The notes beneath the pieces are model-generated. The model saw only the letters and a list, made by a program, of their open reading frames with translations, searched no databases and was not told the DNA's origin. A stretch of 50,036 bases of DNA from an uncultured Fidelibacterota bacterium. GTDB taxonomy: Bacteria; Fidelibacterota; Marinisomatia; Marinisomatales; UBA1611. Every line of letters begins with the position of its first letter. Position 1 is the stretch's first letter. Shown here piece by piece: positions 10,014 to 34,968 of this stretch. The stretch lies in assembly GCA_937893835.1 (NCBI GenBank), contig CALCSS010000042.1, positions 1 to 50,036 of the forward strand, in the 5' to 3' direction. Position numbers and translations under genes: made by a program.

Positions 10014-10022
10014 ATTGTTTTA

Positions 10023-11669
10023 TTACGCGGTTTGCGTGTCTGGTGGAATTAGTTTTTGCTGGGCAATTGTAAGAACGTTAAAAAGTGTATAATAGAGATT
10101 TAGACCAGAAGGAAACCCGTTGAACATTAAAAAGAAAAAACCGGTCATAAAATACTGCATGGTCTTTTGTTGGGGTTGTTGCGCTGCGCCTGCCATCATT
10201 TTTTGTTGGACAAACATCGATATGACCATAAGTATGGGAAGAACGGCCACGTGGTTTCCATAAATTGGAACATTAAAGGGAAGGAGAAAAATAGTGTCTG
10301 GAGAAGACAGGTCGGTTATCCACCAGATAAAAGGCTCAGACCTCAGTTCAATTGTTGTTCTAAAAACTTGAAAAAGCGCGAATAACAACGGCATTTGTAA
10401 CAACATCGGCAGGCAGCCACCGAGGGGGTTTACACCCCTCGCCTTATAGAGCTCCATTGTGGCCTGGTTTAGTTTCTGTGGGTTAGACTTGTATTTCTCT
10501 TTCAGCGAGTTGATCTCTGGTGCAAGGGCCTGCATGGCCGACGTTGACTGGTAGCTTTTTTTAGTAAGAGGATAAACAATTAGTTTTACTAAAAAAGCAA
10601 AAACTATCAACACGAAACCATAGTTGGGGATAAACCCATGCATTTTCTTAAGTGCATATAAAACACCCTTAGATATGGGCCTAATGAACGACCAACCAAA
10701 ATCCATGATGGCCTCTAGTCCAACACCAAGGGATTTTATTCTATCATATTCAAGGGGCCCAACATACAGACGAAAGTCTGTTTTGTTTGTTGGGTCAAAG
10801 ACAAAAGAGGCACCATAGACCTCAACCGAGTCTCCACGACCAGAGAGGTTAGCACTCTCGATGTGGTCCGGTGTTTTTGGGATAATGGCCATTGCAAAAT
10901 ATTTTGTTCTAAGGGCGGCCCAATCGGCCTCACCGTTAAATCTTTTGTTTTCAGAGTCTCCGGTATCAACCTTAAGGTTTTCCAGCTCACCACCCTGGTA
11001 TACATAGGAGTTGAAATAATAAAGGTCATCGCTAAGGTTTTTCTCAGTGGGGGAGAGCCCACCACCCCAACCAAAAGAAACATCCCTATAAATATTGTTG
11101 GCAATCCCAGAGAGGTCTAGTCCAACATCGATAAGGTAGTTGTCTTGGTAAAACGATATGTTTTTATATATAAACTGACCGTCAAAGACCTCTTTTTTGT
11201 ATATGAGTTCTTGGGTATTGTTTGTACGATTTTTATTGTGGGTAATCAGCTCCCAGGGGCCTAAGAGGGAGAGGGGTTCACCATCAAGGTCTTTGCCGGC
11301 GAGAACAAGGTTGTTATTGTTGTTAATTAACTCAACGGCCTGACTGTCTGATGTAAAATATTTATTAAGCTTAAATGATTTAATGGTTCCGCCACCAGTG
11401 GACGACACCACCATACTGTAGAGGTCTGTAATGATCTCTGTTGATTTTTCTTCAGAATATGAGTTGTTTAAGGGGTTGGGCGCTTTGTTTATAATCTCAA
11501 TGGGAGCGACGTTTGTTTTGATAGCGGTCGGCGTGGCTGTTGTGTCAGGGGAGGGTTCGTTAATAGTGGAGACTCGGTCAGGGGTTGGAGATACGAGTTC
11601 AATATATTTAGGCGTAAGAACCAAAACTATAGAAATTAGAAAAAAAGCTAAAAGAGTGTTTCTATCCAT
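10023..11669 (-). CDS. yidC: Membrane protein insertase YidC
   Basis: N-terminal TM segment, periplasmic domain, DFGW, NPLGGCLPMLLQMP, PSGLNLYY. Confidence 0.97.
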   Translation of the reverse strand: MDRNTLLAFFLISIVLVLTPKYIELVSPTPDRVSTINEPSPDTTATPTAIKTNVAPIEIINKAPNPLNNSYSEEKSTEIITDLYSMVVSSTGGGTIKSFKLNKYFTSDSQAVELINNNNNLVLAGKDLDGEPLSLLGPWELITHNKNRTNNTQELIYKKEVFDGQFIYKNISFYQDNYLIDVGLDLSGIANNIYRDVSFGWGGGLSPTEKNLSDDLYYFNSYVYQGGELENLKVDTGDSENKRFNGEADWAALRTKYFAMAIIPKTPDHIESANLSGRGDSVEVYGASFVFDPTNKTDFRLYVGPLEYDRIKSLGVGLEAIMDFGWSFIRPISKGVLYALKKMHGFIPNYGFVLIVFAFLVKLIVYPLTKKSYQSTSAMQALAPEINSLKEKYKSNPQKLNQATMELYKARGVNPLGGCLPMLLQMPLLFALFQVFRTTIELRSEPFIWWITDLSSPDTIFLLPFNVPIYGNHVAVLPILMVISMFVQQKMMAGAAQQPQQKTMQYFMTGFFFLMFNGFPSGLNLYYTLFNVLTIAQQKLIPPDTQTA

Positions 11670-11671
11670 GT

Positions 11672-11911
11672 TTAAATAACCGGGTCTTGCCCACCCTTAA
11701 ATAGTGGATTACACTTCAAAACTCTTACCACGATCAAGAAAACACCCATTGGAAGGGTTTTTTTTTCAAGAGCCTCGATAGCATAGTGTGAACACGTTGG
11801 GTGAAAACGGCAGACAGGCCCTAGTATGGGGGAAATGGTCATTTGATATGTCTTTATAAAAAATAAAAGTGATCTCCTGAGAATACACCCAAGAGATTGA
11901 AGTAAAAACAC
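11672..11911 (-). CDS. yidD: Membrane protein insertion efficiency factor YidD
   Basis: YQMTISP...CRFHPTCSHYA...KCNPLFKGGQDPV, directly upstream of yidC. Confidence 0.92.
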   Translation of the reverse strand: MFLLQSLGCILRRSLLFFIKTYQMTISPILGPVCRFHPTCSHYAIEALEKKTLPMGVFLIVVRVLKCNPLFKGGQDPVI

Positions 11912-11917
11912 TGGGTG

Positions 11918-12052
11918 TTACAGCGCCAGGCGTTTTCGTCCTTTTTTTCGACGACGCCTAAGGACAGAGCGACCACCGACACTTGCTTTTCTTGCTCGAA
12001 AGCCGTGCTTATTTCTTCTTTTTCTTTTACTGGGTTGATATGTTCGCTTCAT
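11918..12052 (-). CDS. rpmH: 50S ribosomal protein L34
   Basis: Below the ORF-track cutoff; translated by hand as [44 protein letters not shown] (44 aa). Confidence 0.97.
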
Positions 12053-12207
12053 TGTTAAATATTATATTTCTTTTGTTGTACAGGGCGCAAAAATACAAAC
12101 ACAAACCACTCTTAACAAAAAATATAATCAATATTTTATTTGTACACACACAACTGTTTTCCTTAGTTTTTTTTATTGTTTTTTGTAATTTAAGGCCGGC
12201 GTTAGCT

Positions 12208-12227
12208 TGTGGATAACTTGTGGATAA
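12208..12227. promoter_or_regulatory. Two tandem perfect DnaA boxes upstream of dnaA
   Basis: TGTGGATAA (reverse complement TTATCCACA) at 12208-12216 and 12219-12227, 11-bp period, 8 nt before the likely dnaA ATG. Confidence 0.9.
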
Positions 12228-12235
12228 CTTATAAA

Positions 12236-13573
12236 ATGAACTATAAAGACATATGGAAGAGCGTATTTTGCGTTTTAGTTGAGTCACTTCCTAAGCACGC
12301 AATGGACGCTTGGTTTGAACCAATGAAGGCCATTGGAGTAACTGATGGAGAGGTATTGTTAGAGGTTCCAAATCAGTTTTTCTGTGAATGGATAGACTCA
12401 CATTATAAAAAAGAACTCGTGACCGCTATACGATCAGCTGACGATACGCTGACCGGTTACCGGTTTAGTATAGGTGCCGTATCCAAGGAGTTTGAAGAAA
12501 GTGGTCTAGTTCAAAAACAAACGAAAGTTCCCCAGGTCCACCAAAACAACCTAAACAGGCAATATTCCTTTGAAAATTTTATTGAAGGATCAAATAATGA
12601 ATTTGCCAAAAACGCAGCTAGGTCAGTCGCTGAACACCCGGGGGAAAACAACTTTAATCCATTGATAATATATGGAGGAGTTGGGCTTGGCAAGACTCAC
12701 CTGATGCACGCCACAGGCAATGCCGCAATTATAAAAAACCCAAACCTTAAAGTGGTTGTTGTTACAAGCGAAAAATTCACACTAGACTTTGTTAACAGCC
12801 TAAGAAAAAACAAAACAATCGAATTTGCCCAACAATATCGATCCGCAGATATTCTCTTAATAGACGACATTCAATTTTTTCGAGGCAAAGAACAAACACA
12901 AGAACAGTTTTTTCACACGTTCAACGTTTTACACCAGGCGGGCAAACAAATTGTAATGACCGCAGACAAATATCCAGGAGAAATGAAAGGGTTGCAAACC
13001 CGTTTATTATCGCGGTTTCAGTCAGGGCTTTCTGTTGATGTTCAGCCACCAAACTTTGAGGTAAGGGTTGCAATACTTTTAGAAAAGGCAGAACAAAACG
13101 GGGTCTCCCTTGATTATGATGTAATAGAGTTTGTCGCTAGACATATTAAAAACAACATCAGAGACCTAGAGGGCGCGATAATTAGAATTTTGGCCAAATC
13201 ATCTCTCTTAAATAAAGAAATTGATCACGCTCTGGTTCGGGATGTTATAAGAGAACGAATAGGCGGTCAATTAAAGACAGATATTACCATAGAAGAAATA
13301 GTGAAAAAAGTATCAGAGTATTCTACGGTCTCCGAAAAAGACATTGTTGGGAAAAGTAGAAAAATGGAGATAGCCGAAGCTAGACAGGTCTCAATGTTCT
13401 TGTGTCGCGAGATCATGGGAACCTCTCTGAGCGGCATTGGTCTGTTTTTTGGTGGAAGAGATCACACGACGGTCATGCACGCCATTAAATCAATCGGCAA
13501 AAAGTTTGAATCAAGCAACAACATAAAAAAATCAGTTACAACACTTAGAAAAGAATTGACCCAATCTCTTTAA
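12236..13573 (+). CDS. dnaA: Chromosomal replication initiator protein DnaA
   Basis: NPLIIYGGVGLGKTHL, LLIDDIQF, QEQFFHTFN, GGRDHTTVMHA. Start placed at ATG 12236 because the GTG at 12209 lies inside the DnaA boxes. Confidence 0.97.
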   Translation: MNYKDIWKSVFCVLVESLPKHAMDAWFEPMKAIGVTDGEVLLEVPNQFFCEWIDSHYKKELVTAIRSADDTLTGYRFSIGAVSKEFEESGLVQKQTKVPQVHQNNLNRQYSFENFIEGSNNEFAKNAARSVAEHPGENNFNPLIIYGGVGLGKTHLMHATGNAAIIKNPNLKVVVVTSEKFTLDFVNSLRKNKTIEFAQQYRSADILLIDDIQFFRGKEQTQEQFFHTFNVLHQAGKQIVMTADKYPGEMKGLQTRLLSRFQSGLSVDVQPPNFEVRVAILLEKAEQNGVSLDYDVIEFVARHIKNNIRDLEGAIIRILAKSSLLNKEIDHALVRDVIRERIGGQLKTDITIEEIVKKVSEYSTVSEKDIVGKSRKMEIAEARQVSMFLCREIMGTSLSGIGLFFGGRDHTTVMHAIKSIGKKFESSNNIKKSVTTLRKELTQSL

Positions 13574-13685
13574 ATATTCCAACACAAACTACTTGCAGAA
13601 CAATCTGTTTTTTTACAAAATAAATGTACTCGGTTGATAGATAATCACACTTTACTTATAAAGATTAAAAATAGGGAGTTGCACT

Positions 13686-14096
13686 ATGCAAAAAAACAGC
13701 GTTAATAAAGTAATAATCGTCGGAAACCTTGGTCAAGACCCTGAAAGTAGGTTTACCCCACAGGGGACAGCGGTAACAAATCTAAGTGTCGCAACAAACG
13801 AATCCTGGAAAAACCAGAATGGTGAACTACAAGACAGGACAGAGTGGCACAAGGTCGTTATGTATGGAAAGATGGCAGAGACCGCAAACGAGTACATGAG
13901 AAAGGGGCAAATGGTTTATGTTGAAGGCAGGCTGCAAACCAACGAATGGGAAGACCAAAACAAAAACAAACGCAGAACAACAGAGATAAGATGTGACAAT
14001 TTTACCATGTTAGGAAGACGAACCGATGGTTCGCAAACCAACACAACCCCAAACCACGAAAAGACAGACGAGCAAGACGACGACCTACCGTTTTAA
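13686..14096 (+). CDS. ssb: Single-stranded DNA-binding protein
   Basis: VNKVIIVGNLGQDPE, TEWHKVV, VYVEGRLQT, acidic tail DDDLPF; GGGAG ribosome-binding site. Confidence 0.97.
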   Translation: MQKNSVNKVIIVGNLGQDPESRFTPQGTAVTNLSVATNESWKNQNGELQDRTEWHKVVMYGKMAETANEYMRKGQMVYVEGRLQTNEWEDQNKNKRRTTEIRCDNFTMLGRRTDGSQTNTTPNHEKTDEQDDDLPF

Positions 14097-14120: not shown

Positions 14121-14885
14121 TTGAAAACCTTTGGTCCTGAGTTTCTGGGGTCGCTAACACCGCGTCCATACTATTGGAGGTATCTATTAACCTATGTTGC
14201 GCTCCTAATGGGCTCTACGTTGGCACGCATAAAAATTAAAGGTCGCCAAAACCTACCCCAAAGAGGGCCGTATGTTTTGGCGTGTAACCACTTTAGTGAT
14301 TATGACCCTCTTTTTTTGAGTTATGCAATTAGAAAACCTATAAGCTTTATTGCTGCAAGTGACCAAGAGGTCGAGTGGATGTTTGCTTGGGCCCCATACA
14401 TATACGGATGGATACCAGTTGATAGGAAAAGGCTTTCTCCATCTACCATTAAACGATCCCTGGCGGCTTTAAAGAGCGGACACGTTCTTGGAATCTTTCC
14501 TGATGGAGGTGTCAGCTACAATCTATTAAACAAACCAAAAAACGGAGCTGTGTTTTTATCAACCCTAGGCAATGCGCCAATTGTTCCAATATCTATATAC
14601 GGTGCTGAAAGAGCTTGGGAGGGAGCGTTCAGGGGTATACGGTCCCGTGTATGTATTAATATAGGTAAACCGTTTGGCCCACATAAGATAGCGAGTGATA
14701 AAAAAGGCAAAGAAGCTCAATTGGAAGTAATTGGCCATGAAATGATGTGTAGGATAGCATCTTTGTTACCAATAAACAGGCAAGGACATTTCAAAAACGA
14801 CAGAACCATAAGAGACCACCAAAAAAACAATAGACTCGTTCCAGACCACCACTATTTTTTTAAAAAAAGACCAGAACAGCCTTAG
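14121..14885 (+). CDS. 1-acyl-sn-glycerol-3-phosphate acyltransferase family (PlsC-like)
   Basis: NHFSDYD (HX4D), PVDR, GIFPDG, PIVPISIYG. Confidence 0.85.
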   Translation: MKTFGPEFLGSLTPRPYYWRYLLTYVALLMGSTLARIKIKGRQNLPQRGPYVLACNHFSDYDPLFLSYAIRKPISFIAASDQEVEWMFAWAPYIYGWIPVDRKRLSPSTIKRSLAALKSGHVLGIFPDGGVSYNLLNKPKNGAVFLSTLGNAPIVPISIYGAERAWEGAFRGIRSRVCINIGKPFGPHKIASDKKGKEAQLEVIGHEMMCRIASLLPINRQGHFKNDRTIRDHQKNNRLVPDHHYFFKKRPEQP

Positions 14886-15739
14886 TTTTTAACTGAGTTT
14901 TTGATAATTAGGGCGAGACCTACAAAGATAAAAGGCCCTCCATATATAGCCCCAGGAGGAACACTCTCTAAAAAAAGAAGATACCCCAAAATAGACGCAA
15001 TTATAGGTTCCCCCAGGGGGACCGAAGCAACAGCGGTTGGGGACAGGTATTTAATCGAATAGTTTAACATATTGTGCCCCAAAATAGACGGCACTACCCC
15101 CAAAAACAAAAACCAAGGAATATCAACCTTTTCAAAAGAGAGCAAAGCCCCATCAGAAATAAACACAATGATGGCTATTGTAATGGACGCAACCAAAAAG
15201 ACCGACCGCCCATAAATTGAATTGTCCGTGTTTTCTCGAACCTTGGATGCAAACATATAAGTGACAGCAATACAAAACCCGCTCAATAGAGACAAGATGT
15301 TTCCCCGCGTGCTGTCGTTTCCGTCTCCTACTTCTGAACCTTGAACAACAACCACACCAACAACCGCTATCACCAGACCAATAAAGACAGCCCGCGACAT
15401 CTTTTGCCCACTGAACCACGACAGGGTGGCAGTGAACAATGGCCCAGTGTTGGCAAGTAATGTTGCGCTTGCAACCGACGTGTTTCTAACGCCAATAAAG
15501 AAAAGAGCAAAGTGTAAACCAAGAAAAAATCCGGCAAAAACAATTCGCATGCGATTTTCTTTCTTGATAAGACCCTGTGGTTTTTTTGCACTAAAGACCC
15601 ACAAGATTACACCGGCGGTGAACATTCTCCAAAAGGCCAAGGTAAGAGCAGGGACAAGAGAGACGTGCCTTATAACAAGAGATGTTGAGCTTACAGACAC
15701 CAATGCCAAAAAAAGAACCAAATAGATCCTTGAGGGCAT
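14882..15739 (-). CDS. DMT/EamA family transporter
   Basis: About 10 hydrophobic helices in two repeats; TSVASATLL, LGEPIIASILG. Confidence 0.88.
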   Translation of the reverse strand: MPSRIYLVLFLALVSVSSTSLVIRHVSLVPALTLAFWRMFTAGVILWVFSAKKPQGLIKKENRMRIVFAGFFLGLHFALFFIGVRNTSVASATLLANTGPLFTATLSWFSGQKMSRAVFIGLVIAVVGVVVVQGSEVGDGNDSTRGNILSLLSGFCIAVTYMFASKVRENTDNSIYGRSVFLVASITIAIIVFISDGALLSFEKVDIPWFLFLGVVPSILGHNMLNYSIKYLSPTAVASVPLGEPIIASILGYLLFLESVPPGAIYGGPFIFVGLALIIKNSVKN

Positions 15740-15741
15740 AA

Positions 15742-17142
15742 CTATTGAAAGTCGTTTATGATCGAGGCTATACAGCAGGTAAGTTTTTTTGCATAGGGTA
15801 TGTGTAAAAACTCATTAGGTCCATGTGCATTAGACCCGGGACCCAACACACCGGTTATTACGAATTGTGCATCGGGAAACCTCTCTCCCAACATTGCCAT
15901 GAAGGGAATTGTCCCTCCTTCACTCATTGAACAATCTTGTTCTTCAAAATAATCAAGAGACGCCTTGTTTATGGCCTTTACCAACCAGGCTGAGGTTTCT
16001 GGTGCGCTCCAACCAGAAGCAGCTTCCTCACACTCAACAACAACCGTAGCCTTATGTGGAACATTTTTTGATAGAGCTCTCACAACGACCTCTTGAGCAA
16101 GGTCTTGGTCAACCATTGGAGGTATTCTAATTGATAGTTGTAATTTTGTGTATGGCCTAAGAACATTACCAGCGTTTTCAGAAGGAGGGAGGCCATTCGC
16201 ACCCACAACAGATAGGGCAGGCCGCCACGTTCTGCGCAAAACACCCTCTACCAGGTCATCTGTGGATGGTTCCATATCGTCTTTCCAGGGAAACTCATCG
16301 ACAACCTCCCGACCAAGAATATCAACAAACCTTTCTGTCTCAGATACCCGATAGTCTGGAATGGTTGTGTGTAGTTCATTTAATTTTATTTCTCCCGACC
16401 TCTCATCTTCCAACCTGGAAAGAAGTAGCCTTGCAATTCGAAAAGAGGAAGGTACGTGCCCACTTGCACCCCCAGAATGAACACCTTCTTTTAAAACTCC
16501 AACCTCTAAGGAACAACCAATCAACCCCCTTAGTGAGGTTGTGGTCCAAAATCTTTTATAGTCTCCCGCACCAGAGTCTAGGCATATGACAAGCTCCGGT
16601 TTCCCAATCAAGTCTGAACAAAGTTCAATATAATGAGGCAGGTCAGGTGAACCACTTTCCTCACTAAACTCGATAAGTATCAAAATCCTTGGGGTGTTCA
16701 ATCCTTGATTAAGAAGAGCTTTAATTGCACACATTGATGCGAAGAGAGCATATCCGTCATCTGCGCCACCTCGACCATACAATTTTCCATCTTTTAATAC
16801 TGGGTCCCAAGGTCCAAGACCATTGTTCCAACCTTCCATCTCGGGTTGTTTATCTAGGTGTCCATACATTAAAATATTTCCATCTTTTGTTCCTGCTATG
16901 TCAATAAGTAACAAAGGGGTTTTTTCTGGTGACTCTTTTATTATTAACTCTGCGTTTTTCGGTAAGTGTTCCTCTGCCCATTTCTTTGCCATGTGCAAGA
17001 CCTTGTCCATGTGCCCGTTTTGTTTCCAGTTCACATCAAAGGAGGGAGACTTGTTTGGTATTTTTATATATTCAAACAATGTTGGGATAATGTGTTTTTC
17101 CCAAAAGACACCAACCTGATCAATCAATAGTTTATTATTCAT
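15742..17142 (-). CDS. M20 family metallopeptidase (dipeptidase/DapE-like)
   Basis: YGHLDKQP, GRGGADDG, EESGS, HSG, NAHGPNE. Confidence 0.9.
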   Translation of the reverse strand: MNNKLLIDQVGVFWEKHIIPTLFEYIKIPNKSPSFDVNWKQNGHMDKVLHMAKKWAEEHLPKNAELIIKESPEKTPLLLIDIAGTKDGNILMYGHLDKQPEMEGWNNGLGPWDPVLKDGKLYGRGGADDGYALFASMCAIKALLNQGLNTPRILILIEFSEESGSPDLPHYIELCSDLIGKPELVICLDSGAGDYKRFWTTTSLRGLIGCSLEVGVLKEGVHSGGASGHVPSSFRIARLLLSRLEDERSGEIKLNELHTTIPDYRVSETERFVDILGREVVDEFPWKDDMEPSTDDLVEGVLRRTWRPALSVVGANGLPPSENAGNVLRPYTKLQLSIRIPPMVDQDLAQEVVVRALSKNVPHKATVVVECEEAASGWSAPETSAWLVKAINKASLDYFEEQDCSMSEGGTIPFMAMLGERFPDAQFVITGVLGPGSNAHGPNEFLHIPYAKKLTCCIASIINDFQ

Positions 17143-17183: not shown

Positions 17184-17987
17184 TTATTTTAATTTTAGAG
17201 CAGCGCTCTTATAGATCAGTTTTCCAGATAAAAAGGCATCGTTAACACTACCGCCTTTTATACCGGCATAAGACTCGAAAACACCACGAAACAAACTAGG
17301 CACATATGTATTGATCTGATTTTTTCTTTGTGGTGTCAAGATATTTAATGCGCGCATTATGTTTGGGGTGATATCCTTTTCTTTTTCAATAAAAAACCCT
17401 GCAGATGAAAACGCCTGGAACAACTTCTCCATTTCACTAACTGTCCTAAAATCACACCAAAGAAAGGAGCCCGTTCTTTTTAATACACGAACCACCTCAA
17501 AAAGAAATATATCAATGTTTCCATAGCAGTGAGACGATTCGACATTCAGGACCACATCAAAAACATTGTCTTCAAAAGGGAGGTTTTCAGAATCACCCCG
17601 TACAAATGATAGACCAGGCTCATCAAAAGATGCCACACATAGATCGACAGCATCCGACGAAACGTCTAAACCGGTAACTGTTTTAGTGTTTAAACAAGTT
17701 TGAATATATGAAGCGCCGCCACCGCGGCCAGACCCAACTTCTAATAGGTTTGCATTAGAAAGACCAACCTGGGTTGCCGTATGGTGATATAGTTGAACAG
17801 AGTACCTCTCGTTATCATATGCTTCTGACATCGCCGGGTGGAATCCATCCTCATCATAACCATAATTCATAAACCTGAAGCTGTGTTGGTGGGATTTTCG
17901 TGCAAAAACATTATACCAAAACCGCCAAAACCATTTTTTTGAAGATGGGGAAAACTGTATAAACCATACAATTATCTTTTGTATCAT
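17184..17987 (-). CDS. Class I SAM-dependent methyltransferase, resembling mycobacterial lipid O-methyltransferases (phthiotriol MTase type)
   Basis: FMNYGY, QLYHH, LEVGSGRGGG, GDSENLPF, NVESSHCY. Confidence 0.8.
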   Translation of the reverse strand: MIQKIIVWFIQFSPSSKKWFWRFWYNVFARKSHQHSFRFMNYGYDEDGFHPAMSEAYDNERYSVQLYHHTATQVGLSNANLLEVGSGRGGGASYIQTCLNTKTVTGLDVSSDAVDLCVASFDEPGLSFVRGDSENLPFEDNVFDVVLNVESSHCYGNIDIFLFEVVRVLKRTGSFLWCDFRTVSEMEKLFQAFSSAGFFIEKEKDITPNIMRALNILTPQRKNQINTYVPSLFRGVFESYAGIKGGSVNDAFLSGKLIYKSAALKLK

Positions 17988-17988
17988 T

Positions 17989-18792
17989 TTACCTTGGTTT
18001 TTCTACGACCTGGTCAGCCCTAAACTCCAAATACCATCGCCAAAAGGCTTTAAAAAAAGGTATTAGTCGTAGTTTTAGTGGAATATATGTCGTTCTCCAA
18101 TCCCTTTCGATTGCATATAAGATTTTTTGAACACATCTATCAAGACCCATAGACTCCTTACTGTGTTGTTTTGGTGGTTTTTTGTGTACTTTTCCATCTG
18201 GACCGAATGCATTTCCGCGAAGGTTTGTATCCTTGATCCAGCCCAAGATGGCCTCTAAGACTGTTATTTCTTTTTTATTTTCAATCGCCAAAGTGGATAT
18301 AAAACCATGAAGTGCGTGTTTTGAAGCCGCATAACCAGAATGCCTTGGAAAACCCATAAGGGCTTGACCCGTAGAGCAACTAATGATTTTTCCGCGAGTT
18401 TCTTTTAAGTGAGGCAAGGCAGCATGAACACAGTTCACGGCACCTAAATAATTCACATTTATTAGATCTTTAAAAAAATCAAGGTCAGTTATTTCATCAA
18501 AGCGAGCCCACATGCTTACCCCCGCATTTAACACCAACCCATCAACGCGACCAAAGGCCTCGATAGTTCTGTTTACCATGTGTTGACACTGCTCTAGGAC
18601 CGTTATATCTGTTTGTACAGGAACAGCCTTTCCACCAGAGTCTGTGATATGATTGCAAACCCTTTCGATCTCATCAAGCCTTCGTGCGGCACAGACAACC
18701 ATAGAGCCAGCAACAGATAACTGCCTACAAAGCTCTTCACCGATACCAGAAGAGCCACCCGTTATAATAAAGACCTTGTTTTTTAGAATCAT
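17989..18792 (-). CDS. SDR family oxidoreductase (DHRS7/DHRS7B-like; candidate acyl/alkyl-DHAP reductase)
   Basis: TGGSSGIG, AARR (NADP preference), LNAG, VNYLG and catalytic YAASKHALHGF. Confidence 0.85.
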   Translation of the reverse strand: MILKNKVFIITGGSSGIGEELCRQLSVAGSMVVCAARRLDEIERVCNHITDSGGKAVPVQTDITVLEQCQHMVNRTIEAFGRVDGLVLNAGVSMWARFDEITDLDFFKDLINVNYLGAVNCVHAALPHLKETRGKIISCSTGQALMGFPRHSGYAASKHALHGFISTLAIENKKEITVLEAILGWIKDTNLRGNAFGPDGKVHKKPPKQHSKESMGLDRCVQKILYAIERDWRTTYIPLKLRLIPFFKAFWRWYLEFRADQVVEKPR

Positions 18793-18814: not shown

Positions 18815-20572
18815 TCAATCTAGCACTATATTGTTTTTTACCCCAAAAATATTATCGGGGTCTTGTGATTTTTTTATTCCCCTAACCATATCTATACTGC
18901 CCTCCGAGATGGTGTCAGACATAAAATCCTTTCTCAATTTTCCCACGCCGTGGTGGTGTGATATTGAGCCCCCGTTCTTTATAAAGTTTTCTCTCATTTT
19001 GTGCTCAATCTTTGTGAATACATCCTCCGGATTTTCAATACCATCAAAACTCATGGCTATGGTGTTATACATACAAACACCAGTGTGATATATTTTTGAT
19101 ATCCGTGATGTAAAAAAAGGTTTTCCCGGCAGACCGTTTTCTTTGTGAAGTTGATTTACTAGTTTAAAGGCCTCTCCTTTAACCTGGTTTATCTTTGACC
19201 AAGGAACCGCTGTTTCCATTGTTTCTCCAAGAATGTTTTGGGTGAATATCAGCTCCCTTATATAGGCTATTACCATTGTTGCAAGATATCCACTTTCTCC
19301 GGTGCTTTCACCCGCAAGGATACCACCATGTTTTTTTGCAAGTATAGTGAGATTGTCTCGTTGGTTTTTTACCTCAGACAGAGACCCCTCTATTTTAAAA
19401 ACAGCTGCTGTAAACCTTTCGGGGTCAACACCTTTTATATTAAAAAGGATGTATTTTTTTAACCGATCCAATGCCCCAGAAAGGCCTTCTTTCTCTTCTT
19501 TTAAGGCGTTTCCAAGTCGAATCTGTAGATTGTCTGCCAGCCTAGCACTTGCCGGAACCATATTGGAATGAAAAAGGTCATACATAAACCGGACCCCCGT
19601 TTCCCAATCGTTGAATATTATAGACTCATAGGCAGAAGACTCTGGTAGTCGATGTATTTTTAGGGTGGCCTTTGTTATAATACCAAGGTTTCCTTCGGAC
19701 CCAAACAATATGTTTTGTGCCTTGATCCCAAAAGAGGACCTTGTGAGTGGTTTTATCTGATTTATTGTACCAACAGGTGTGATCATGGTCAGGTTCTGAA
19801 CGATGTCTTCAATATTTCCATATCGATGTTTTTTCATACCTGCAGCATTGGTGGATATCCACCCACCCACGGTCGAGAATTCATAACTATCAGGTTCGTG
19901 CCCAACGGTAAAGCCTTCTTTGTTTAGCGCCTCTTCTAATGCCTTTCCTGTTATACCAGCCTGAACGGTTGCCATAAGGTTTTCTTCATCTATGGATTCA
20001 ACAGCGTCCATTCTTCTAGTATCAACAGAAACGACCATTCGGCCTTCCTGTTTGGGTGGCCTAAGGGCGTTGGTGACGTTTGTTCCGCCGCCATAAGGAA
20101 TTAGGCAGACGTTGTGTTTTTTTGCAAGTAGGATCAATTTGGTCGTATCGTCCTCACTCTCAATATAGAAAACGAGGTCGGCAAAGGTTTCTAGTTTGTT
20201 ATACAGAACCTTATACACCTCATCGGTAGAGTGTTGTCCGTGGCTGTGTAGTACCCTCTCTTTTTCTTCGTTAGTAAATCGGTCCTTATCAAACACTTCT
20301 TTCAATTCTGCCATAAAGGGCTCATTGATTTTTGGTTTGACAATATGTTTTTTGTCTAATTCTTTAATTTTTGGTTCTAGTTTAAAATCCACCCCAAGTA
20401 TTCCTTCGACAAATGGAATGAAATTAGGAAGCCTCTTTCCGCAAATAGGATATCTGTTTCCTGAGAAAGATACAGACATGTCCTTGTTTATAATGAAACC
20501 TGAATCCCTGTAGCCCCACTTATGGCCCCAGTTAGAGTCGTTGATGCCAAAAAACTTTTCTTTCTTACCCAT
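18815..20572 (-). CDS. agps: Alkyl-dihydroxyacetonephosphate synthase (FAD-linked, ether-bond forming)
   Basis: KWGY, HSHGQ, IPYGGGTNV, GHEPDSYEFSTVGGW, GMKKHRYGNIEDIV, GSEGNLGIIT, IAYIRE, ETAVPW, ISHHHGVGKLRK. Start set at ATG 20572, an 8-nt overlap with the upstream gene. Confidence 0.9.
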   Translation of the reverse strand: MGKKEKFFGINDSNWGHKWGYRDSGFIINKDMSVSFSGNRYPICGKRLPNFIPFVEGILGVDFKLEPKIKELDKKHIVKPKINEPFMAELKEVFDKDRFTNEEKERVLHSHGQHSTDEVYKVLYNKLETFADLVFYIESEDDTTKLILLAKKHNVCLIPYGGGTNVTNALRPPKQEGRMVVSVDTRRMDAVESIDEENLMATVQAGITGKALEEALNKEGFTVGHEPDSYEFSTVGGWISTNAAGMKKHRYGNIEDIVQNLTMITPVGTINQIKPLTRSSFGIKAQNILFGSEGNLGIITKATLKIHRLPESSAYESIIFNDWETGVRFMYDLFHSNMVPASARLADNLQIRLGNALKEEKEGLSGALDRLKKYILFNIKGVDPERFTAAVFKIEGSLSEVKNQRDNLTILAKKHGGILAGESTGESGYLATMVIAYIRELIFTQNILGETMETAVPWSKINQVKGEAFKLVNQLHKENGLPGKPFFTSRISKIYHTGVCMYNTIAMSFDGIENPEDVFTKIEHKMRENFIKNGGSISHHHGVGKLRKDFMSDTISEGSIDMVRGIKKSQDPDNIFGVKNNIVLD

Positions 20573-21296
20573 ATAGGGTCTCAACCTTTTCTTTTATGCT
20601 TTGTTCAAGCGTTGTGGTCATGTTTTTTATAGCCTCTGCAGCCTCAGTGTCAGAACCGCTGGAGTCTTTCAAAAAGGACCGGGGATAAATTGGTTCAAGA
20701 ATGTAAACATTTATTCTGGTTGGTAGACCAAAAAAAACTCTACCTCGTGGCCAAATTTTATGGGAACCATGAATTACAGCTGGAAGAATAGGCTTGTTCA
20801 GGTTTAAGGAAAAGGTAGCTGCCCCTTTTTTAAAAGGGAGCATTTTACCAGGTTCCCCACGAGTTCCCTCTGGAAACAAAATAAGATTTCGCTGACCATA
20901 GTCCATAAACGCATTACAAAGAGCCTCCGAATCCTGTATTGATAATTTTTTATTTTCATTGGACTGTCGATCAACAGGTATAAGGTTCATAATTGTATTT
21001 ACAGCGCCTCTTTTGATCCAGTTTTCAAACCAATAATCTCGGGCCGCCAACATTCCAAAATGATTGAAACTCTTTTTTGATGCAACAGCAAGAAGAGCAA
21101 CGTCCATATGGCTATTATGGTTACTACAAAAAATAAACGATGAGTCTGGAATATTGTCTCTGCCAAACACCCTTAGGGGGGCGTAGGTTTTAAAAACAAA
21201 TTTTGAATAACAATAAAATAAAGTTTTGAATATCTTATAAAAAAGGGGCTGCTTCCCCAAAAGATATGAATATTTGGGGTTTTGGAGCACGTCCAT
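20565..21296 (-). CDS. Lysophospholipid/DHAP acyltransferase (PlsC family)
   Basis: NHNSHMD (HX4D), AARDYWF, PVDR, LFPEGTRG, PFKKG. Confidence 0.88.
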   Translation of the reverse strand: MDVLQNPKYSYLLGKQPLFYKIFKTLFYCYSKFVFKTYAPLRVFGRDNIPDSSFIFCSNHNSHMDVALLAVASKKSFNHFGMLAARDYWFENWIKRGAVNTIMNLIPVDRQSNENKKLSIQDSEALCNAFMDYGQRNLILFPEGTRGEPGKMLPFKKGAATFSLNLNKPILPAVIHGSHKIWPRGRVFFGLPTRINVYILEPIYPRSFLKDSSGSDTEAAEAIKNMTTTLEQSIKEKVETLYG

Positions 21297-21304
21297 GGTT
21301 TTTT

Positions 21305-22465
21305 TTATTTTCTACCATATTTCATATGAGCATCGGTAAAGGTGTGGGAACCAATGGCACAGACAAGGGAGATATCTAGGGCCAGTGTTGCGCCCGCAAT
21401 TATTTCTGCAAGCTTTCTAGATGAATGTTCACCCTCAGCACACTCCAAGAGTTCTAGGTTCTTTTTTTGCATTTTAAGCCTTGTTCCACCGCCGACCGTT
21501 CCAACCGTAAGAGAGGGGAGTGTAAGTTTGAACTTTAGCGCATCTTCTTTTTTTTCTATTGCAAAATGAGCAATGCTATTTTCTGATGCGCAAGCAGCAT
21601 CTTGACCTGTTGCTAAATAAATAGCGGTAAGAGCATTAGACTCGTGAATTCCGTTACCATGAATTCCAGCCATGCTTGAAATGGTTGGGTAGTACGGCCA
21701 CGCCTCAAAAAGAATGTCCGGGTCCACCTTCAAAACCTTCTTCATAACGCTGTTTTTTATTGTGGTTTCAGCTGCGACTCCATGACCCCGACCCAAGAGC
21801 ATATTTCTAACAGATGGTTTTTTATCGCTGTTTATGTTTGATTCAAGAAAATAATTATATCCAGTTTCTTTACGAATTAACTCACAAGCAACCTTTGCCG
21901 CCAATGTGACCATGTTTTGACCAGCGGCGTTTCCGGTATCCATGACAATATCCAAAACAACATAACCCTGAACAGCATATTGGTCTATTCTTAACACCTT
22001 GCCATAGTTGGTAGTGCTTTCAGCTGCGTCAACAATGGCCTCTTTGTTTTTATTTACCCAGGTTTGAAACTTTGCGCTTTCGTCTAAGTCGTCAAAAATA
22101 AAAACAGGCGCCCTAGAGAGTTCCTGTCTAAAGTGCCTTACCTTTGTTCCACCGCTTAGATAGGAGGCCAACATGCCCCTGTTCATCGACATTGCCAACG
22201 TTCCCTCTAATGTACAAACAGGAACACAATACTCACCCTTGGCGTAAAGACCATCAAGAAGCACTGGGCCAACGACGGCCATTGGAACCTTCATGAACCC
22301 AACATGGTTCTCAATTATGCCTCGTAGTTCTTCTGGGCTATCTTCTGAGGTGTCGCCTAGGTCAATATCGGCATAGCTTTTGACCCACTCAACTCGAGCA
22401 GCCGAGTCTTCAGGTTTAAACCCCCTAGGAATAGAAGAGCTTTTCCCGTTTTTTTCTTCAGTCAT
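21305..22465 (-). CDS. Hydroxymethylglutaryl-CoA reductase homolog (class I type, soluble)
   Basis: IENHVG, TLEGTL (catalytic E), TGNAAGQNM, SDKK, ATGQD, GTVGGGT and C-terminal AHMKYGR (catalytic H). Confidence 0.9.
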   Translation of the reverse strand: MTEEKNGKSSSIPRGFKPEDSAARVEWVKSYADIDLGDTSEDSPEELRGIIENHVGFMKVPMAVVGPVLLDGLYAKGEYCVPVCTLEGTLAMSMNRGMLASYLSGGTKVRHFRQELSRAPVFIFDDLDESAKFQTWVNKNKEAIVDAAESTTNYGKVLRIDQYAVQGYVVLDIVMDTGNAAGQNMVTLAAKVACELIRKETGYNYFLESNINSDKKPSVRNMLLGRGHGVAAETTIKNSVMKKVLKVDPDILFEAWPYYPTISSMAGIHGNGIHESNALTAIYLATGQDAACASENSIAHFAIEKKEDALKFKLTLPSLTVGTVGGGTRLKMQKKNLELLECAEGEHSSRKLAEIIAGATLALDISLVCAIGSHTFTDAHMKYGRK

Positions 22466-22665
22466 TAATGATCTTTTATTGTGTGTTTTTGGTTATTCGG
22501 TATCGGGGATGGACCCGAGCCATATATTTAATGTCGGTATATCATTGAAATACACGGGAAGGTACAAAGCGTTTTAAATAAAAACACTTAAAAAAAAACA
22601 AATAAAAACCTAATGTTTAAACTCGCATTTAAACACTATATTATCTAATTAGTAATATAAAAAAC

Positions 22666-31778: not shown

Positions 31779-33215
31779 TTATTTGAGAAAGACAGTTTTT
31801 TTGGATTTAGATATGCCACCAGACGATATGGAGAAGAGGTAAACACCCGATGGACATGTTTCACCAAGATCATTTTTCCCATCCCAGGAGAAATAATGCG
31901 TACCGGCGGCTTTTCTCACTGTGTTGTTTTTTATGATCTTTCTTCCAAAAAGGTCTACCAATTCAAGTTCGACAGTAGCATCGTTTTTTAATTCATACCC
32001 TATAACAACAGTAGAGTTAAAGGGGTTTGGGAATGCGCTGCTCAAACTTACAACTTCAGGGATTTGAAAATTTGTACTCTCTGTATGAATTTCGGATGTG
32101 AGGTTTGGATCAACCTTGATAGCATCAAAAATCACGTTCGAGCCACTTGCATCATTGGTAACAAGGTCTCTCAATATGATCCCAAGGCTCTCTCCCTCAT
32201 TCAGTGTAATTGTTTCTATGAACTTGAAGTCCCCTCGTACCGCGCTCTGGTCTACGATCACATCTGACCTCGTACTTACGCCGTCCTCGTTTTTTACATA
32301 TAGTTCATATATGGCCCCGGTCGTACCAGATACTCCATCAGGAATAAAAGCCTCGACGTTGTATTCACCCACACCCTCAATACTTGGAACCCAAATAGCG
32401 TAGTGTCGACTTTCCTCGGGGTCTGTTGTTGTCGGTGAGATCCAACAATCGTTGTTATATCCCTGGTCAAGGTAGACCCAGTCGGGACCATGGAATCTTT
32501 GAAAACCGTTGTCTCCATCATCAACCAAGCTGTCTGATATCCAAAGCCAATCACTTCGATTACCACGCAATTCTTCAACCGGGTCAAGAAAGCCACCCCA
32601 CCAACCAAAGGGATTCACTGCATACGGTTCAACAGAGTCAAAGAACCAGTTTCCTCTACGAACCTCAAAGTGCAGATGGGTATTTGTTGTGCATCCGGTA
32701 TTACCCGCAAAGCCCAAAGTGTCTCCTGTTTCAACATTGTCTCCCACGGTAACATTGAGTGGCGGTGTCATGTGGAGGTATACGGTGAAATACTCATTTC
32801 CATGTGCAACTATGATGGTTCCCTGGTCTCCGTTGGGTTCTATTCCTCCGGGACAAGGGTCTGCTGGTGGCGAGAAAGAGGCCCAAAGAACATAGCCACC
32901 TGCAGGCGCAAGGATTGGGGTGTTGAAGGGCATATTGTAGTCAACACCGGCATGCCCATCGTAACAAGAATGACCAGACCTACAGTCTGGATAGACAACC
33001 TCATCAACCAATTCAATACCATCAAATCTTAATAAAAGAGAATCAATGACATTGGAACAGGGGCACTGGTGGTCTACGTGTGCCGATACAGGATACTGTT
33101 CAAATCCAGGTGGCTCAAAGGGTCTTAATTCTAAAAATGGTTCTTGACCCACTAACGCCACAGAACTAAAAACAATAAACATATTTATAAACGACATGAT
33201 GGATAATTTTTTCAT
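31779..33215 (-). CDS. M23 family metallopeptidase with golvesin-like domain and C-terminal T9SS/FlgD-like domain
   Basis: YDGHAGVDY (HxxxD), YLHM, HLHFEVR and a tail of FPNPFNS...SGVYLF...KKTVFLK. Start trimmed to ATG 33215 (MKKLSIM, signal peptide). Confidence 0.85.
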   Translation of the reverse strand: MKKLSIMSFINMFIVFSSVALVGQEPFLELRPFEPPGFEQYPVSAHVDHQCPCSNVIDSLLLRFDGIELVDEVVYPDCRSGHSCYDGHAGVDYNMPFNTPILAPAGGYVLWASFSPPADPCPGGIEPNGDQGTIIVAHGNEYFTVYLHMTPPLNVTVGDNVETGDTLGFAGNTGCTTNTHLHFEVRRGNWFFDSVEPYAVNPFGWWGGFLDPVEELRGNRSDWLWISDSLVDDGDNGFQRFHGPDWVYLDQGYNNDCWISPTTTDPEESRHYAIWVPSIEGVGEYNVEAFIPDGVSGTTGAIYELYVKNEDGVSTRSDVIVDQSAVRGDFKFIETITLNEGESLGIILRDLVTNDASGSNVIFDAIKVDPNLTSEIHTESTNFQIPEVVSLSSAFPNPFNSTVVIGYELKNDATVELELVDLFGRKIIKNNTVRKAAGTHYFSWDGKNDLGETCPSGVYLFSISSGGISKSKKTVFLK

Positions 33216-33285
33216 AGGGGTATAACTTCCACACAAATATACAATCATCATCTTAATGAATCGAAGCCTAATAAAGGATACAACC

Positions 33286-34968
33286 ATGTTAAAGAAAGAA
33301 GGTTTATTCATATTCATTTTATTTATAATGTTTTCGGTTGTTTCAGCAACAGAGGTGGACACCGCCTTTTCTGTGAAGTGGCACAACGAACCCTGGGGTG
33401 CAGGGGGGCTCATACCCGCAGGTCCCCCGTGGAACATGGTTGGGCCATTTGACTTCGACAACGATGGTTTTGGAGATTTTGTTGTCTCCAGTGCCTATGC
33501 AGGTGAATTCTGCAATGGTGTATATCACTACGAAGCCGCGAGCAATGACTCCATAGCATTAAAGTGGGTCTATACATTTTATGATCTTAGTTGTTCGTAC
33601 GATGCCTATTCCAGCGTTGCCGTGGGCGACATTGATGGAGACAACAATCAAGAAATACTATCTTTAGTTGACACAAGCCCTGGCGCTTCGGGTCAAAGGG
33701 GGCTCCAGGTTTTTGAGTGGGACCCAGATTCGATGTCCTTTTTGTCTCAACCAACGTTCACCTGGGATATGGGCCTTGACAGTGTTTGGGAAGCCGGTCA
33801 GATACATGTCGAAGATCTGGATGGTGACTCACAACAAGAGATCATCGTATCTGTGATGGATGGACCCTGGTCTGAGCTAGGGACCGGAGGCACGAGCCGC
33901 CTTATGATATTTGAACTTGATACAGTAATAAATGACTCTGCCATCTTTAACATAGAGTATCAAGACGAGGTCTGGTCAAACTGGAGCGGCTACAACATTT
34001 CAGTGGGAGATTTGGACAACGATGGGGCAAAGGAAATATATACTGTGGGCTACGAATATTTTCACCTTATTGTCCATGAAAATACCGGCGAAGACCAGTA
34101 CGAATACCAAACAGATTTTTTTATTTCTTCAGAGCTTTATCAAAGAGCCAACCAAGGTATTCTAATTTCAGACATTGACAACAATGGGGCAAATGAGATG
34201 ATTTGTTTGACGTCTGGTGTCAATTCTTTATCTGGAGACCTTGTAACACCTGGAAGTTTTTTTGTGGTAGATGGCGTTGATGATGTTAGCAGCCTATCAT
34301 ACTCTAATTTCAATTTGTTTTCAACCTATGCTGGTGGTCTTAGACAGGTCAGCCTAGGCGACGCAGATGGTGATGGCAATCTCAATATTTATCTTGCAGG
34401 TCACTATGATGAGGCCGTTTATGATTGGGAGTATGGTGGAGGTGACCCGACAAGTCCCGGTAGCTACGTAGAAAGAGTTATTTTTATGGATGACACAACG
34501 GACAATTTCACACCTGGAAACGACCAAGGTAAGGTGAGAGTAGCAAAACTATTTTCAGGAGACATAGATAATGATGGCGATGGTGATATTGTTTTTTCAT
34601 CTGCTAGTTTTGCTTCTGACAAGCCACATCTATATATGATAGAGCACAATGGAACACTTGGAACTGGAAACGACCAAGACCTTAACCCACAAAGGATCTC
34701 CATTGGACAAAATTATCCCAACCCCTTCAATCCTGAAACAAGGTTTCAGTACACCACCCACCAACCTGAGCATGTTTCATTAAAAGTATATGATATTTTA
34801 GGTAAGGAGATACGAACCGTGTTTGATGGGCACCGGGCACCGGGCACACATATTGAAAAATGGAAAGGGGTAGACAAGAGAGGCCAGGTGGTTTCAAGTG
34901 GTGTTTATTTTTATCAGCTAAAAACTGGACAGGAACGAATCACCAAAAAAATGGTTTTTGGAAAATAA
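33286..34968 (+). CDS. FG-GAP/VCBS-repeat secreted protein with C-terminal T9SS/FlgD-like domain
   Basis: AAGGA ribosome-binding site and signal peptide; about seven DxDxDG Ca-binding repeats (DFDNDGFGD, GDIDGDNNQE, GDLDNDGAKE...); QNYPNPFNP...SGVYFYQL...KKMVFGK. Confidence 0.85.
   Translation: MLKKEGLFIFILFIMFSVVSATEVDTAFSVKWHNEPWGAGGLIPAGPPWNMVGPFDFDNDGFGDFVVSSAYAGEFCNGVYHYEAASNDSIALKWVYTFYDLSCSYDAYSSVAVGDIDGDNNQEILSLVDTSPGASGQRGLQVFEWDPDSMSFLSQPTFTWDMGLDSVWEAGQIHVEDLDGDSQQEIIVSVMDGPWSELGTGGTSRLMIFELDTVINDSAIFNIEYQDEVWSNWSGYNISVGDLDNDGAKEIYTVGYEYFHLIVHENTGEDQYEYQTDFFISSELYQRANQGILISDIDNNGANEMICLTSGVNSLSGDLVTPGSFFVVDGVDDVSSLSYSNFNLFSTYAGGLRQVSLGDADGDGNLNIYLAGHYDEAVYDWEYGGGDPTSPGSYVERVIFMDDTTDNFTPGNDQGKVRVAKLFSGDIDNDGDGDIVFSSASFASDKPHLYMIEHNGTLGTGNDQDLNPQRISIGQNYPNPFNPETRFQYTTHQPEHVSLKVYDILGKEIRTVFDGHRAPGTHIEKWKGVDKRGQVVSSGVYFYQLKTGQERITKKMVFGK

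Follow-up and report, generated by a model that had tools for sequence, protein, structure and literature searches.

The 50,036-nucleotide stretch analysed here (the window; GenBank assembly GCA_937893835.1, contig CALCSS010000042.1, positions 1 to 50,036) comes from an uncultured Fidelibacterota bacterium of the marine Marinimicrobia (SAR406), and carries a gene whose protein is labelled hydroxymethylglutaryl-CoA reductase (HMGR) in public records. Its sequence, predicted fold, phylogenetic position and gene neighbourhood make it very likely, in our judgement, that this gene encodes an FcrA-type enzyme making the fatty alcohol for alkylglycerone-phosphate synthase (AGPS) within a module for alkyl-dihydroxyacetone-phosphate (alkyl-DHAP) ether-lipid synthesis. 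The protein is predicted to be an NADPH-dependent reductase that converts fatty acyl thioesters to fatty alcohols, and most likely belongs with the FcrA family rather than with the HMG-CoA reductases, in a distinct, domain-less and AGPS-linked subclade. The initial annotation of this DNA had proposed a repurposed thioester-to-alcohol reductase supplying AGPS, and the proposal is supported by the single HMGR homolog of the genome, its methylerythritol phosphate (MEP) pathway, the clade in which the protein falls and three replaced pocket residues. The central idea behind it is not new, having already been published by Grossi et al. (ISME J 2025; PMC11948995); what the present analysis would add is the AGPS linkage as a conserved module for alkyl-DHAP ether-lipid synthesis.

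The available portions of that paper describe, under the name FcrA, a large clade of homologs of 'class-I HMGR' that reduces acyl-CoA of at least C14 to fatty alcohols with NADPH, does not reduce HMG-CoA, is not inhibited by simvastatin and is found in bacteria without the mevalonate pathway (PMC11948995). The same portions report that FcrA keeps the catalytic tetrad while Ser684 is replaced by Glu, the conserved Lys by mostly small residues and Leu862 by bulky ones, and they name Pb-FcrA of 'Ca. Promineifilum breve' as a characterised representative, together with the FcrA of Natronomonas pharaonis (PMC11948995). They also raise the possibility that some FcrA may supply alcohols for ether lipids, pointing to an AGPS gene nine genes from Pb-FcrA and to a PlsC-like gene beside fcrA in Coxiella (PMC11948995).

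The window protein has the size and fold of a stand-alone HMGR catalytic core, with neither an N-terminal Lad (PF25653) domain nor an acyl carrier protein (ACP) domain, and its open frame runs only nine codons upstream of the ATG. It matches the Pfam family HMG-CoA_red (PF00368) with 317.2 bits (E 1.8e-94) over its full length, residues 23-385 aligning to profile positions 4-368 of 368. The class-I, NADPH-type model TIGR00533 scores 268.3 bits, as against 38.4 bits for the class-II model TIGR00532, and this class-I score lies under the TIGR00533 equivalog cut-off of 441.8. Its nearest solved relatives are class-I HMGRs, led by 6hr7 of Methanothermococcus thermolithotrophicus (E 1.4e-64) and followed by the plant and human enzymes. 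An AlphaFold2 monomer model built on a 41-row alignment reached a predicted local distance difference test (pLDDT) score of 90.6 and a predicted template modelling (pTM) score of 0.91, and superposed on 6hr8 and human 1dqa with template modelling (TM) scores of 0.82-0.84 at 28-36% identity in the fold alignments.

Within this fold the catalytic residues are retained and the lining of the substrate pocket is changed. The catalytic residues of the solved HMGRs correspond to Glu87, Lys215 (within D214-K215-K216), Asp289 and His380, and this set of Glu, Lys, Asp and His is invariant across every aligned group. The protein reads TLEG at residues 85-88, where the solved HMGRs have TTEG, NAAGQNM at 179-185, where they have DAMGMNM, and HESN at 274-277; the initial annotation had described a class-I-type HMGR with an intact E/K/D/H set and these three variant segments, and all of this is borne out by Pfam, TIGR00533 and the alignments to solved HMGRs. 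When aligned by HMMER to 6hr7 and to 8ecg, the Arabidopsis HMGR, the protein has E208, Y258/Y259 and F376 where the HMG pocket has its Ser, Lys and Leu, respectively. Two MAFFT runs aligned the loop at the Lys position differently, and for this reason we relied on the HMMER alignments and limit the claim to there being no Lys at 257-260. The conserved HMG-binding lysine, printed as Lys795 in Grossi et al., we take to be Lys735 in human numbering. Judged from these alignments, the protein lacks the canonical residues of the HMG-binding pocket and carries the FcrA signature with one deviation, the Tyr.

The same pattern separates whole groups of sequences. Canonical rows of the tree alignment have Ser at position 208 and Leu at position 376 (8 of 8 each), as against E20/D2 and F16/W6 in the 22 AGPS-linked rows and E53/S7/D1 and W61 in the 61 rows of a wax-ester-linked clade, and all non-canonical groups of that 102-row alignment read xAAGQNM where canonical rows read DAMGMNM. 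Finer differences set the AGPS-linked subclade apart from the wax-ester clade: N179 instead of D, Ala instead of Ser at 379, and at position 275 Val or Ile in 18 of the 22 AGPS-linked rows, with Glu in the window protein and Ser in the wax-ester clade.

Searching 1.84 billion cluster representatives with the reductase homolog returned 2622 matches. A first alignment of 151 rows was assembled from 142 representatives with a coverage of 300 residues or more (150 were listed), the sequence P0001 and eight picked Marinimicrobia proteins; the Ser/Lys/Leu pocket occurs in just nine of these rows, which form one group, and all nine canonical rows have S, K and L at the pocket positions. Our tree (IQ-TREE quick mode, LG+C20) holds 102 rows, namely the window protein, 79 of 80 named loci (L066 was left out for a frameshift) and 22 picked representatives, eight of them canonical. 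Canonical (8) and non-canonical (94) rows are split with an SH-like approximate likelihood ratio test (SH-aLRT) value of 99. The window protein falls in a 31-row clade (SH-aLRT 99, stem length 1.18) that takes in every one of the 22 AGPS-linked rows and stands apart from the 61-row clade with wax-ester and Lad-domain members, to which the window protein is about 40% identical; the suggestion that AGPS-linked HMGRs might form a clade of their own is thereby confirmed. Two Holophagaceae loci in the 61-row clade have the PF25653 N-terminal domain and a wax ester synthase/diacylglycerol acyltransferase (WS/DGAT) gene two genes downstream, which matches the Lad-type FcrA of the published work and anchors that clade. 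The AGPS-linkage label changes three times on the tree, a count that omits the rows of unknown context (22 representative proteins and four loci at contig ends), and within the clade the exceptions are one locus from Planctomycetaceae and one from Parachlamydiales. Among related non-canonical proteins, HMGR domains occur in fusion with AMP-binding and phosphopantetheine-binding domains, a combination that fits acyl-thioester substrates. Organism names could be attached to two of ten representative clusters, Alcanivorax sediminis and an Ozemobacteraceae ACP fusion.

Gene order and co-occurrence tie the reductase to AGPS. An HMGR homolog is present in 19 of 151 genomes in an even sample of the phylum, in 18 of them at 48% identity or more, and in each of those 18 genomes an AGPS gene (likewise 48% identity or more) shares the contig and strand of the homolog, at a distance that leaves space for a single gene; the three remaining matches to the AGPS query are weak (30-31% identity). 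The order reductase, acyltransferase, AGPS was found in all 10 phylum loci that were fetched and in 21 of the 80 named loci from GTDB species genomes, and at each of these the acyltransferase lies between the other two. A short-chain dehydrogenase/reductase (SDR) gene follows directly 3' of AGPS in eight of the 10 phylum loci, the other two ending at contig ends, and in 16 of the 21 named loci. These 21 syntenic loci belong to Marinimicrobia, Calditrichota, Planctomycetota, Spirochaetota, Bacteroidota, Ignavibacteria, Gemmatimonadota and a Halothiobacillaceae gammaproteobacterium (about eight phyla), and the named close homologs come from 'Candidatus Marinimicrobia/Neomarinimicrobiota' metagenome-assembled genomes (MAGs). 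A gene order this tight and this widely kept is the strongest genomic argument so far for FcrA-type enzymes supplying AGPS.

In the window itself the reductase gene, as the initial annotation had it, is the first gene of a lipid operon: it opens a tightly spaced, co-oriented run on the minus strand, with an intergenic stretch and a divergent open reading frame (ORF) upstream (Table 1). Downstream of the reductase the successive spacings are an 8-nt gap, a 20-nt overlap and then gaps of 22, 1, 41 and 2 nt. Scans for sigma-70 consensus promoters and for terminators gave no more matches than shuffled sequence.

Table 1. Features of the co-oriented gene run and its upstream region (positions in the window)
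Feature	Position	Strand	Remarks
Presumed promoter region	22466-22665	.	AT-rich, 200 nt, shared with the divergent ORF
FcrA-like class-I HMGR homolog	21305-22465	-	ATG-started ORF, 386 aa; PF00368
PlsC-family acyltransferase	20565-21296	-	243 aa; PF01553, 68.6 bits
AGPS, alkylglycerone-phosphate synthase	18815-20584	-	589 aa; Pfam FAD_binding_4 and FAD-oxidase_C
Classical SDR	17989-18792	-	267 aa; Pfam adh_short, 156 bits
S-adenosylmethionine (SAM)-dependent methyltransferase	17184-17987	-	267 aa; Methyltransf_11; accessory, outside the conserved core
M20 peptidase-like gene	15742-17142	-	Pfam
EamA transporter	14882-15739	-	Pfam

The AGPS of this run appears, on sequence comparison, to be a true full-length homolog of the mammalian enzyme, which swaps the acyl group for a fatty alcohol. 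It aligns to mammalian 4bby with 455 bits (E 4e-135; residues 19-584 on 93-656) and to Dictyostelium AGPS (2uuu) with 275 bits, and an HHH loop, an Arg and a Tyr are conserved in the alignment to the solved enzymes. The Arg and the Tyr we take to be catalytic, and the roles of all these residues, the HHH loop included, are our assumption. The acyltransferase has intact HX4D-type and FPEGTR motifs in its translation, and its sole solved relative is PlsC (5kym, E 2.2e-14); its place between reductase and AGPS suggests a DHAP (glycerone-phosphate) O-acyltransferase that would make 1-acyl-DHAP. The SDR exceeds the cut-off of the NCBIfam model NF004825 (235 bits against 215) and, from its position and the pathway's need for a ketoreductase, is a candidate acyl/alkyl-DHAP reductase making 1-O-alkyl-glycerol-3-phosphate.

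These assignments allow a route to be proposed. The HMGR-fold enzyme, its pocket re-lined to take a long fatty acyl chain in place of HMG, would reduce acyl-CoA, possibly acyl-ACP, to a fatty alcohol in a four-electron, NADPH-dependent reaction. The PlsC-type acyltransferase would convert DHAP to 1-acyl-DHAP, and AGPS would then exchange the acyl group for the alcohol and so form the ether bond. Reduction of the 2-keto group by the SDR would turn alkyl-DHAP into 1-O-alkyl-glycerol-3-phosphate (alkyl-G3P), and a general PlsC could finally acylate sn-2. Homology, residue pattern, tree position, gene order, co-occurrence, the identity of AGPS and the failure to find any of the mevalonate genes searched for are observations; the substrates of reductase, acyltransferase and SDR and the lipid product are what we infer from them.

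Further genes in the run are conserved more narrowly. Only the window and its closest relative, L042 (10281-11075), have a methyltransferase gene after the SDR. For the window gene the nearest NCBIfam models are two lipid O-methyltransferases, both with scores under their cut-offs: 213 bits against 300 for the phthiotriol/phenolphthiotriol dimycocerosates methyltransferase, and 199 bits against 400 for Mtf2, which acts on fatty acids. The methyltransferase may perform a lineage-specific tailoring step on the ether lipid. The M20 and EamA genes are co-oriented and tightly spaced, and this downstream arrangement is conserved solely in L042 and not at the other loci, which makes it doubtful that they belong to the lipid operon; all three genes, the methyltransferase included, may be accessory or unrelated. 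Converging on the end of the run is a second PlsC-family acyltransferase gene (254 aa, 14121-14885, plus strand), which may complete the alkyl-acyl lipid as its sn-2 acyltransferase or may be no more than a housekeeping PlsC.

The remainder of the genome is that of an organism with the MEP pathway. The assembly comprises 1.99 Mb in 250 contigs (the window being contig 42) and is 71% complete. It holds a single HMGR homolog and IspH, IspG, Dxr and Dxs, all over their cut-offs. The window contributes no other mevalonate-pathway family among its 39 non-overlapping ORFs of at least 110 aa and an overlapping 560-aa ORF (31779-33461, minus strand), which agrees with the initial annotation's statement that such neighbours are missing. 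That annotation had proposed a genome-wide check for mvaS, mevalonate kinase, a second HMGR and the MEP pathway, and the outcome favours the repurposed reductase: one HMGR homolog, MEP genes present, no HMG-CoA synthase found, and a sole kinase match that lies under its cut-off. This 'mevalonate kinase' match (110.8 bits, cut-off 163) was rejected as a pathway member on its similar scores with galactokinase models; the GHMP kinase gene adjoins a nucleotidyltransferase-like gene (one weak NCBIfam match) and a sodium/solute symporter gene, a sugar-type context. Given the incompleteness of the assembly, we put the question of mevalonate or MEP to its relatives. HMG-CoA synthase was found in none of the 18 phylum relatives with an HMGR homolog (own genome excluded; 11 of them at least 90% complete), nor in any of the 17 relatives that carry a close homolog together with AGPS, and IspH is present in all 18 genomes with a close homolog (own genome and 17 relatives). 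The initial annotation had offered, as an alternative, isoprenoid alcohols feeding a hybrid ether lipid with an archaeal-like chain; we rejected this idea, since the product of an HMGR-type enzyme would be mevalonate and no prenol, and the downstream mevalonate genes looked for did not turn up.

Alternative sources of the alcohol were also considered. AGPS needs a fatty alcohol, and we found no match to NAD_binding_4 (PF07993), the domain of fatty acyl-CoA reductase (FAR), in the own genome, a result used cautiously; together these two points count in favour of the reductase as the alcohol source. As a test for FAR in the relatives PF07993 was rejected: it matches every one of the 14 controls and 17 of 18 genomes, with low scores (best per-genome scores of at most 59 bits, except for 95.9 bits in G137), and it is too unspecific for FAR presence or absence in relatives to be judged. 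WS/DGAT gave no match in the own genome, but the control genomes were silent too, so this says little. The genome holds four AMP-binding enzymes, which could supply acyl-CoA. A PEDS1/CarF-type desaturase (Lipid_desat, PF10520) was found neither in the own genome nor in any of the seven module-bearing relatives within the window's order, so that alkyl (plasmanyl) and not vinyl (plasmenyl) ethers are expected here. PF10520 does occur in eight of ten genomes (G048, G076, G088, G096, G108, G112, G116 and G120; loci L126 and L127 are examples) of another Marinimicrobia genus that also bears the reductase-AGPS module, and that genus might make vinyl-ether plasmalogens aerobically.

The protein and its module can be compared with several known systems. 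As far as the available portions of the FcrA paper show, the window protein resembles FcrA in its class-I HMGR fold, its retained tetrad, a Glu in place of Ser684, an absent HMG-binding Lys and an aromatic side chain where Leu862 would stand (PMC11948995), and it resides likewise in a genome in which no mevalonate pathway was found. It departs from Lad-type FcrA in having neither PF25653/Lad nor ACP, in Phe instead of Trp and Tyr instead of a small residue, and in a partner that is AGPS in a tight operon, not WS/DGAT. With canonical class-I HMGRs (6hr7/6hr8; human 1dqa) it shares fold, catalytic tetrad and predicted four-electron reduction; it differs from them in its replaced pocket Ser, Lys and Leu, in NAAGQNM for DAMGMNM, in a score under the equivalog cut-off and in a genome where no mevalonate context was found. 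The overall sequence, in which a fatty alcohol and acyl-DHAP would give alkyl-DHAP and then alkyl-G3P, parallels the peroxisomal route of FAR, GNPAT, AGPS and alkyl-DHAP reductase. An adjoining acyltransferase gene also accompanies agps in the MXAN_1676-1675-1674 operon of Myxococcus xanthus, as the accessible text of a PNAS 2026 study of aerobic plasmalogen synthesis describes (PMC13012113). Unlike the eukaryotic and Myxococcus routes, the alcohol step would here be performed by an HMGR-fold enzyme and not by a FAR (NAD_binding_4), and one compact operon would encode all steps. ElbD of M. xanthus (FadD-ACP-FAR-PlsC), an enzyme for alkyl ether lipids, unites acyl activation and alcohol-forming reduction with a PlsC-like domain, which recalls the non-canonical HMGR-like proteins fused to AMP-binding and ACP domains; in contrast to ElbD, the window proteins are separate polypeptides, the reductase has another fold and the ether bond would be made by AGPS.

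The GTDB survey in the PNAS 2026 study used eukaryotic FAR, GNPAT, AGPS and PEDS1 queries, and the portion of its text available contains neither 'HMG' nor 'FcrA' (PMC13012113); with eukaryotic FAR queries an HMGR-fold reductase could not be counted as FAR. In a 2025 study of the Black Sea, 49 of 134 Marinisomatota MAGs are reported to contain Agps homologues; the accessible part of the article names no alcohol source and makes no mention of HMG (PMC11868695). A 2026 sponge-symbiont preprint likewise mentions neither HMG nor FcrA. Our literature search found no paper joining Marinimicrobia with HMG-CoA reductase, although the supplements of the FcrA paper may already list the lineage or its gene order, and it found FcrA, fatty acyl-CoA reductase and ether lipids joined only in that paper (PMC11948995). 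A search for SAR406 with ether lipid returned nothing on topic, as judged by title.

Several points weigh against an FcrA-type supplier of AGPS. Enzymatic activity is known only for Pb-FcrA, which by the paper's description belongs to the Lad-domain wax-ester group and thus to a different subclade, and the rows of our tree do not include the sequences of the assayed Pb-FcrA and Natronomonas FcrA. The window protein has Tyr at the Lys position, where the FcrA paper speaks of 'generally small' residues, and Phe at the Leu position, where the wax-ester clade has Trp; from these two deviations the substrate pocket may differ from that of characterised FcrA. No AGPS lies within 9 kb of the homolog at L060 or L064, both of which belong to the 31-row clade. 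The role of the SDR and the DHAP specificity of the acyltransferase are assigned by position alone. HMG-CoA synthase and diphosphomevalonate decarboxylase were not found in an own genome that is 71% complete, and isopentenyl-diphosphate isomerase (IDI) and phosphomevalonate kinase were not searched for.

The doubt that remains concerns mainly the exact substrate, both through the Tyr and Phe of the pocket and in the choice between CoA and ACP. It is possible, if unlikely, that the same fold and chemistry feed AGPS, or some other lipid step, from a different substrate, for instance acyl-ACP, a thioester of a 3-hydroxy or branched acyl chain, or chains of another length range. The long, well-supported branch that splits the AGPS-linked subclade from the wax-ester FcrA clade would suit such a shift, as would the differences at pocket-region positions 179, 275, 376 and 379, the fusion of relatives to ACP domains and the bulky Tyr of the window protein where the FcrA paper, in its available portions, has small residues (PMC11948995). 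The AGPS of eukaryotes and Myxococcus, however, uses plain long-chain fatty alcohols, the signature of E208 with an aromatic residue at 376 is common to FcrA, and the conserved core has no hydroxylase or other tailoring gene.

That the protein is a genuine HMG-CoA reductase, making or degrading mevalonate amid coincidental lipid genes, we hold to be very improbable. The public annotation, the full-length domain with its intact tetrad and the 71% completeness of the genome all lean that way, yet the score lies under the NCBIfam equivalog cut-off, the protein sits outside the canonical clade, the HMG-binding Ser, Lys and Leu are all replaced, HMG-CoA synthase was not found in the own genome or in the 18 relatives (11 with a completeness of 90% or more), the genome has the MEP pathway, and AGPS linkage holds in 18 of 18 genomes. 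Least credible of all is a catabolic module in which the enzyme would run in reverse and oxidise to acyl-CoA those fatty alcohols that scavenged ether lipids or wax esters set free. Some HMGRs do run oxidatively, and the Parachlamydiales relative L064 has an FA_hydroxylase-family gene and a FadL-type porin gene beside its homolog, which speaks for this idea; but acyltransferase, AGPS and ketoreductase, the conserved partners, form a biosynthetic sequence, no ether-cleaving enzyme belongs to the conserved core, and the single FcrA that has been assayed is, by the available text, an NADPH-consuming reductase (PMC11948995). An FcrA-type enzyme supplying fatty alcohol to AGPS thus remains our preferred reading.

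The locus recurs in the sea and shows a weak sign of expression. A 5.5-kb stretch is present nearly whole (0.91-0.98 of sampled words) in 15 marine or seawater DNA runs from 11 studies, one of which may be the source. Metatranscriptome contigs from four runs in two studies (at least 93% alike) fall on the reductase in nine pieces, AGPS in six, the junction of acyltransferase and AGPS in one and the SDR in four, with none on the methyltransferase gene, from which nothing is concluded, and RNA-library contigs reach up to 22537, inside the upstream region, which is a weak hint only. Contigs carry neither strand, ends nor level, and DNA carry-over is possible, so transcription, indicated here by contigs only, is no more than weakly suggested.

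Other observations concern relatives of the reductase and the rest of the window. Many non-canonical HMGR-like proteins of 800-1500 aa carry an EcKL/APH kinase-like domain at the C-terminus, frequently with AMP-binding and phosphopantetheine-binding domains at the N-terminus (P0140, P0141, P0142, P0185 and P0196 are examples), and in Holophagaceae an ABC1 kinase-like gene lies between Lad-type FcrA and WS/DGAT (L084, 10115-11821; L081, 7035-8975); we know of no explanation for this recurring kinase partner of FcrA-like reductases. At L064, from a Parachlamydiales MAG (8995-12405), a member of the AGPS clade is followed by the FA_hydroxylase-family gene and the FadL-type outer-membrane transporter gene, with lpxD upstream, and this locus is a different lipid context for the AGPS-linked subclade. 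A Deltaproteobacteria/Myxococcota MAG (L087) has two FcrA-type copies, at 6038-7207 and 9001-10167, within 3 kb on one contig. The window also holds a chromosome-origin neighbourhood at 10023-14096, where yidC, mnmE and mnmG (minus strand) precede the plus-strand genes dnaA (12209-13573) and ssb (13686-14096). Two perfect DnaA-box nonamers lie at 12208-12227, at the start of dnaA, and the GC skew changes sign near 10 kb; the number of DnaA boxes across the whole window is no more than chance. Two adjacent genes of the PhyH (phytanoyl-CoA dioxygenase) family lie beside an aldo/keto reductase gene at 44737-46298 (minus strand).

In summary, assignment of the window protein to the FcrA family would correct a widespread misannotation, since the HMGR name in public records would wrongly imply mevalonate metabolism in an organism with the MEP pathway. 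The four-gene construct is directly testable in E. coli. As a broader proposal, plausible to us but held tentatively, the AGPS-linked subclade might represent a self-contained, horizontally mobile four-gene module, spread over at least eight phyla, in which an HMGR-fold enzyme replaces FAR in a eukaryote-like route, with part of SAR406, an abundant marine lineage, as a hitherto unassigned ocean source of non-isoprenoid 1-O-alkylglycerol lipids. For the Marinisomatota MAGs of the Black Sea, whose Agps homologues were reported with no named alcohol source, the module would fill that gap, and it points to a source of the bacterial alkylglycerol lipids in seawater.

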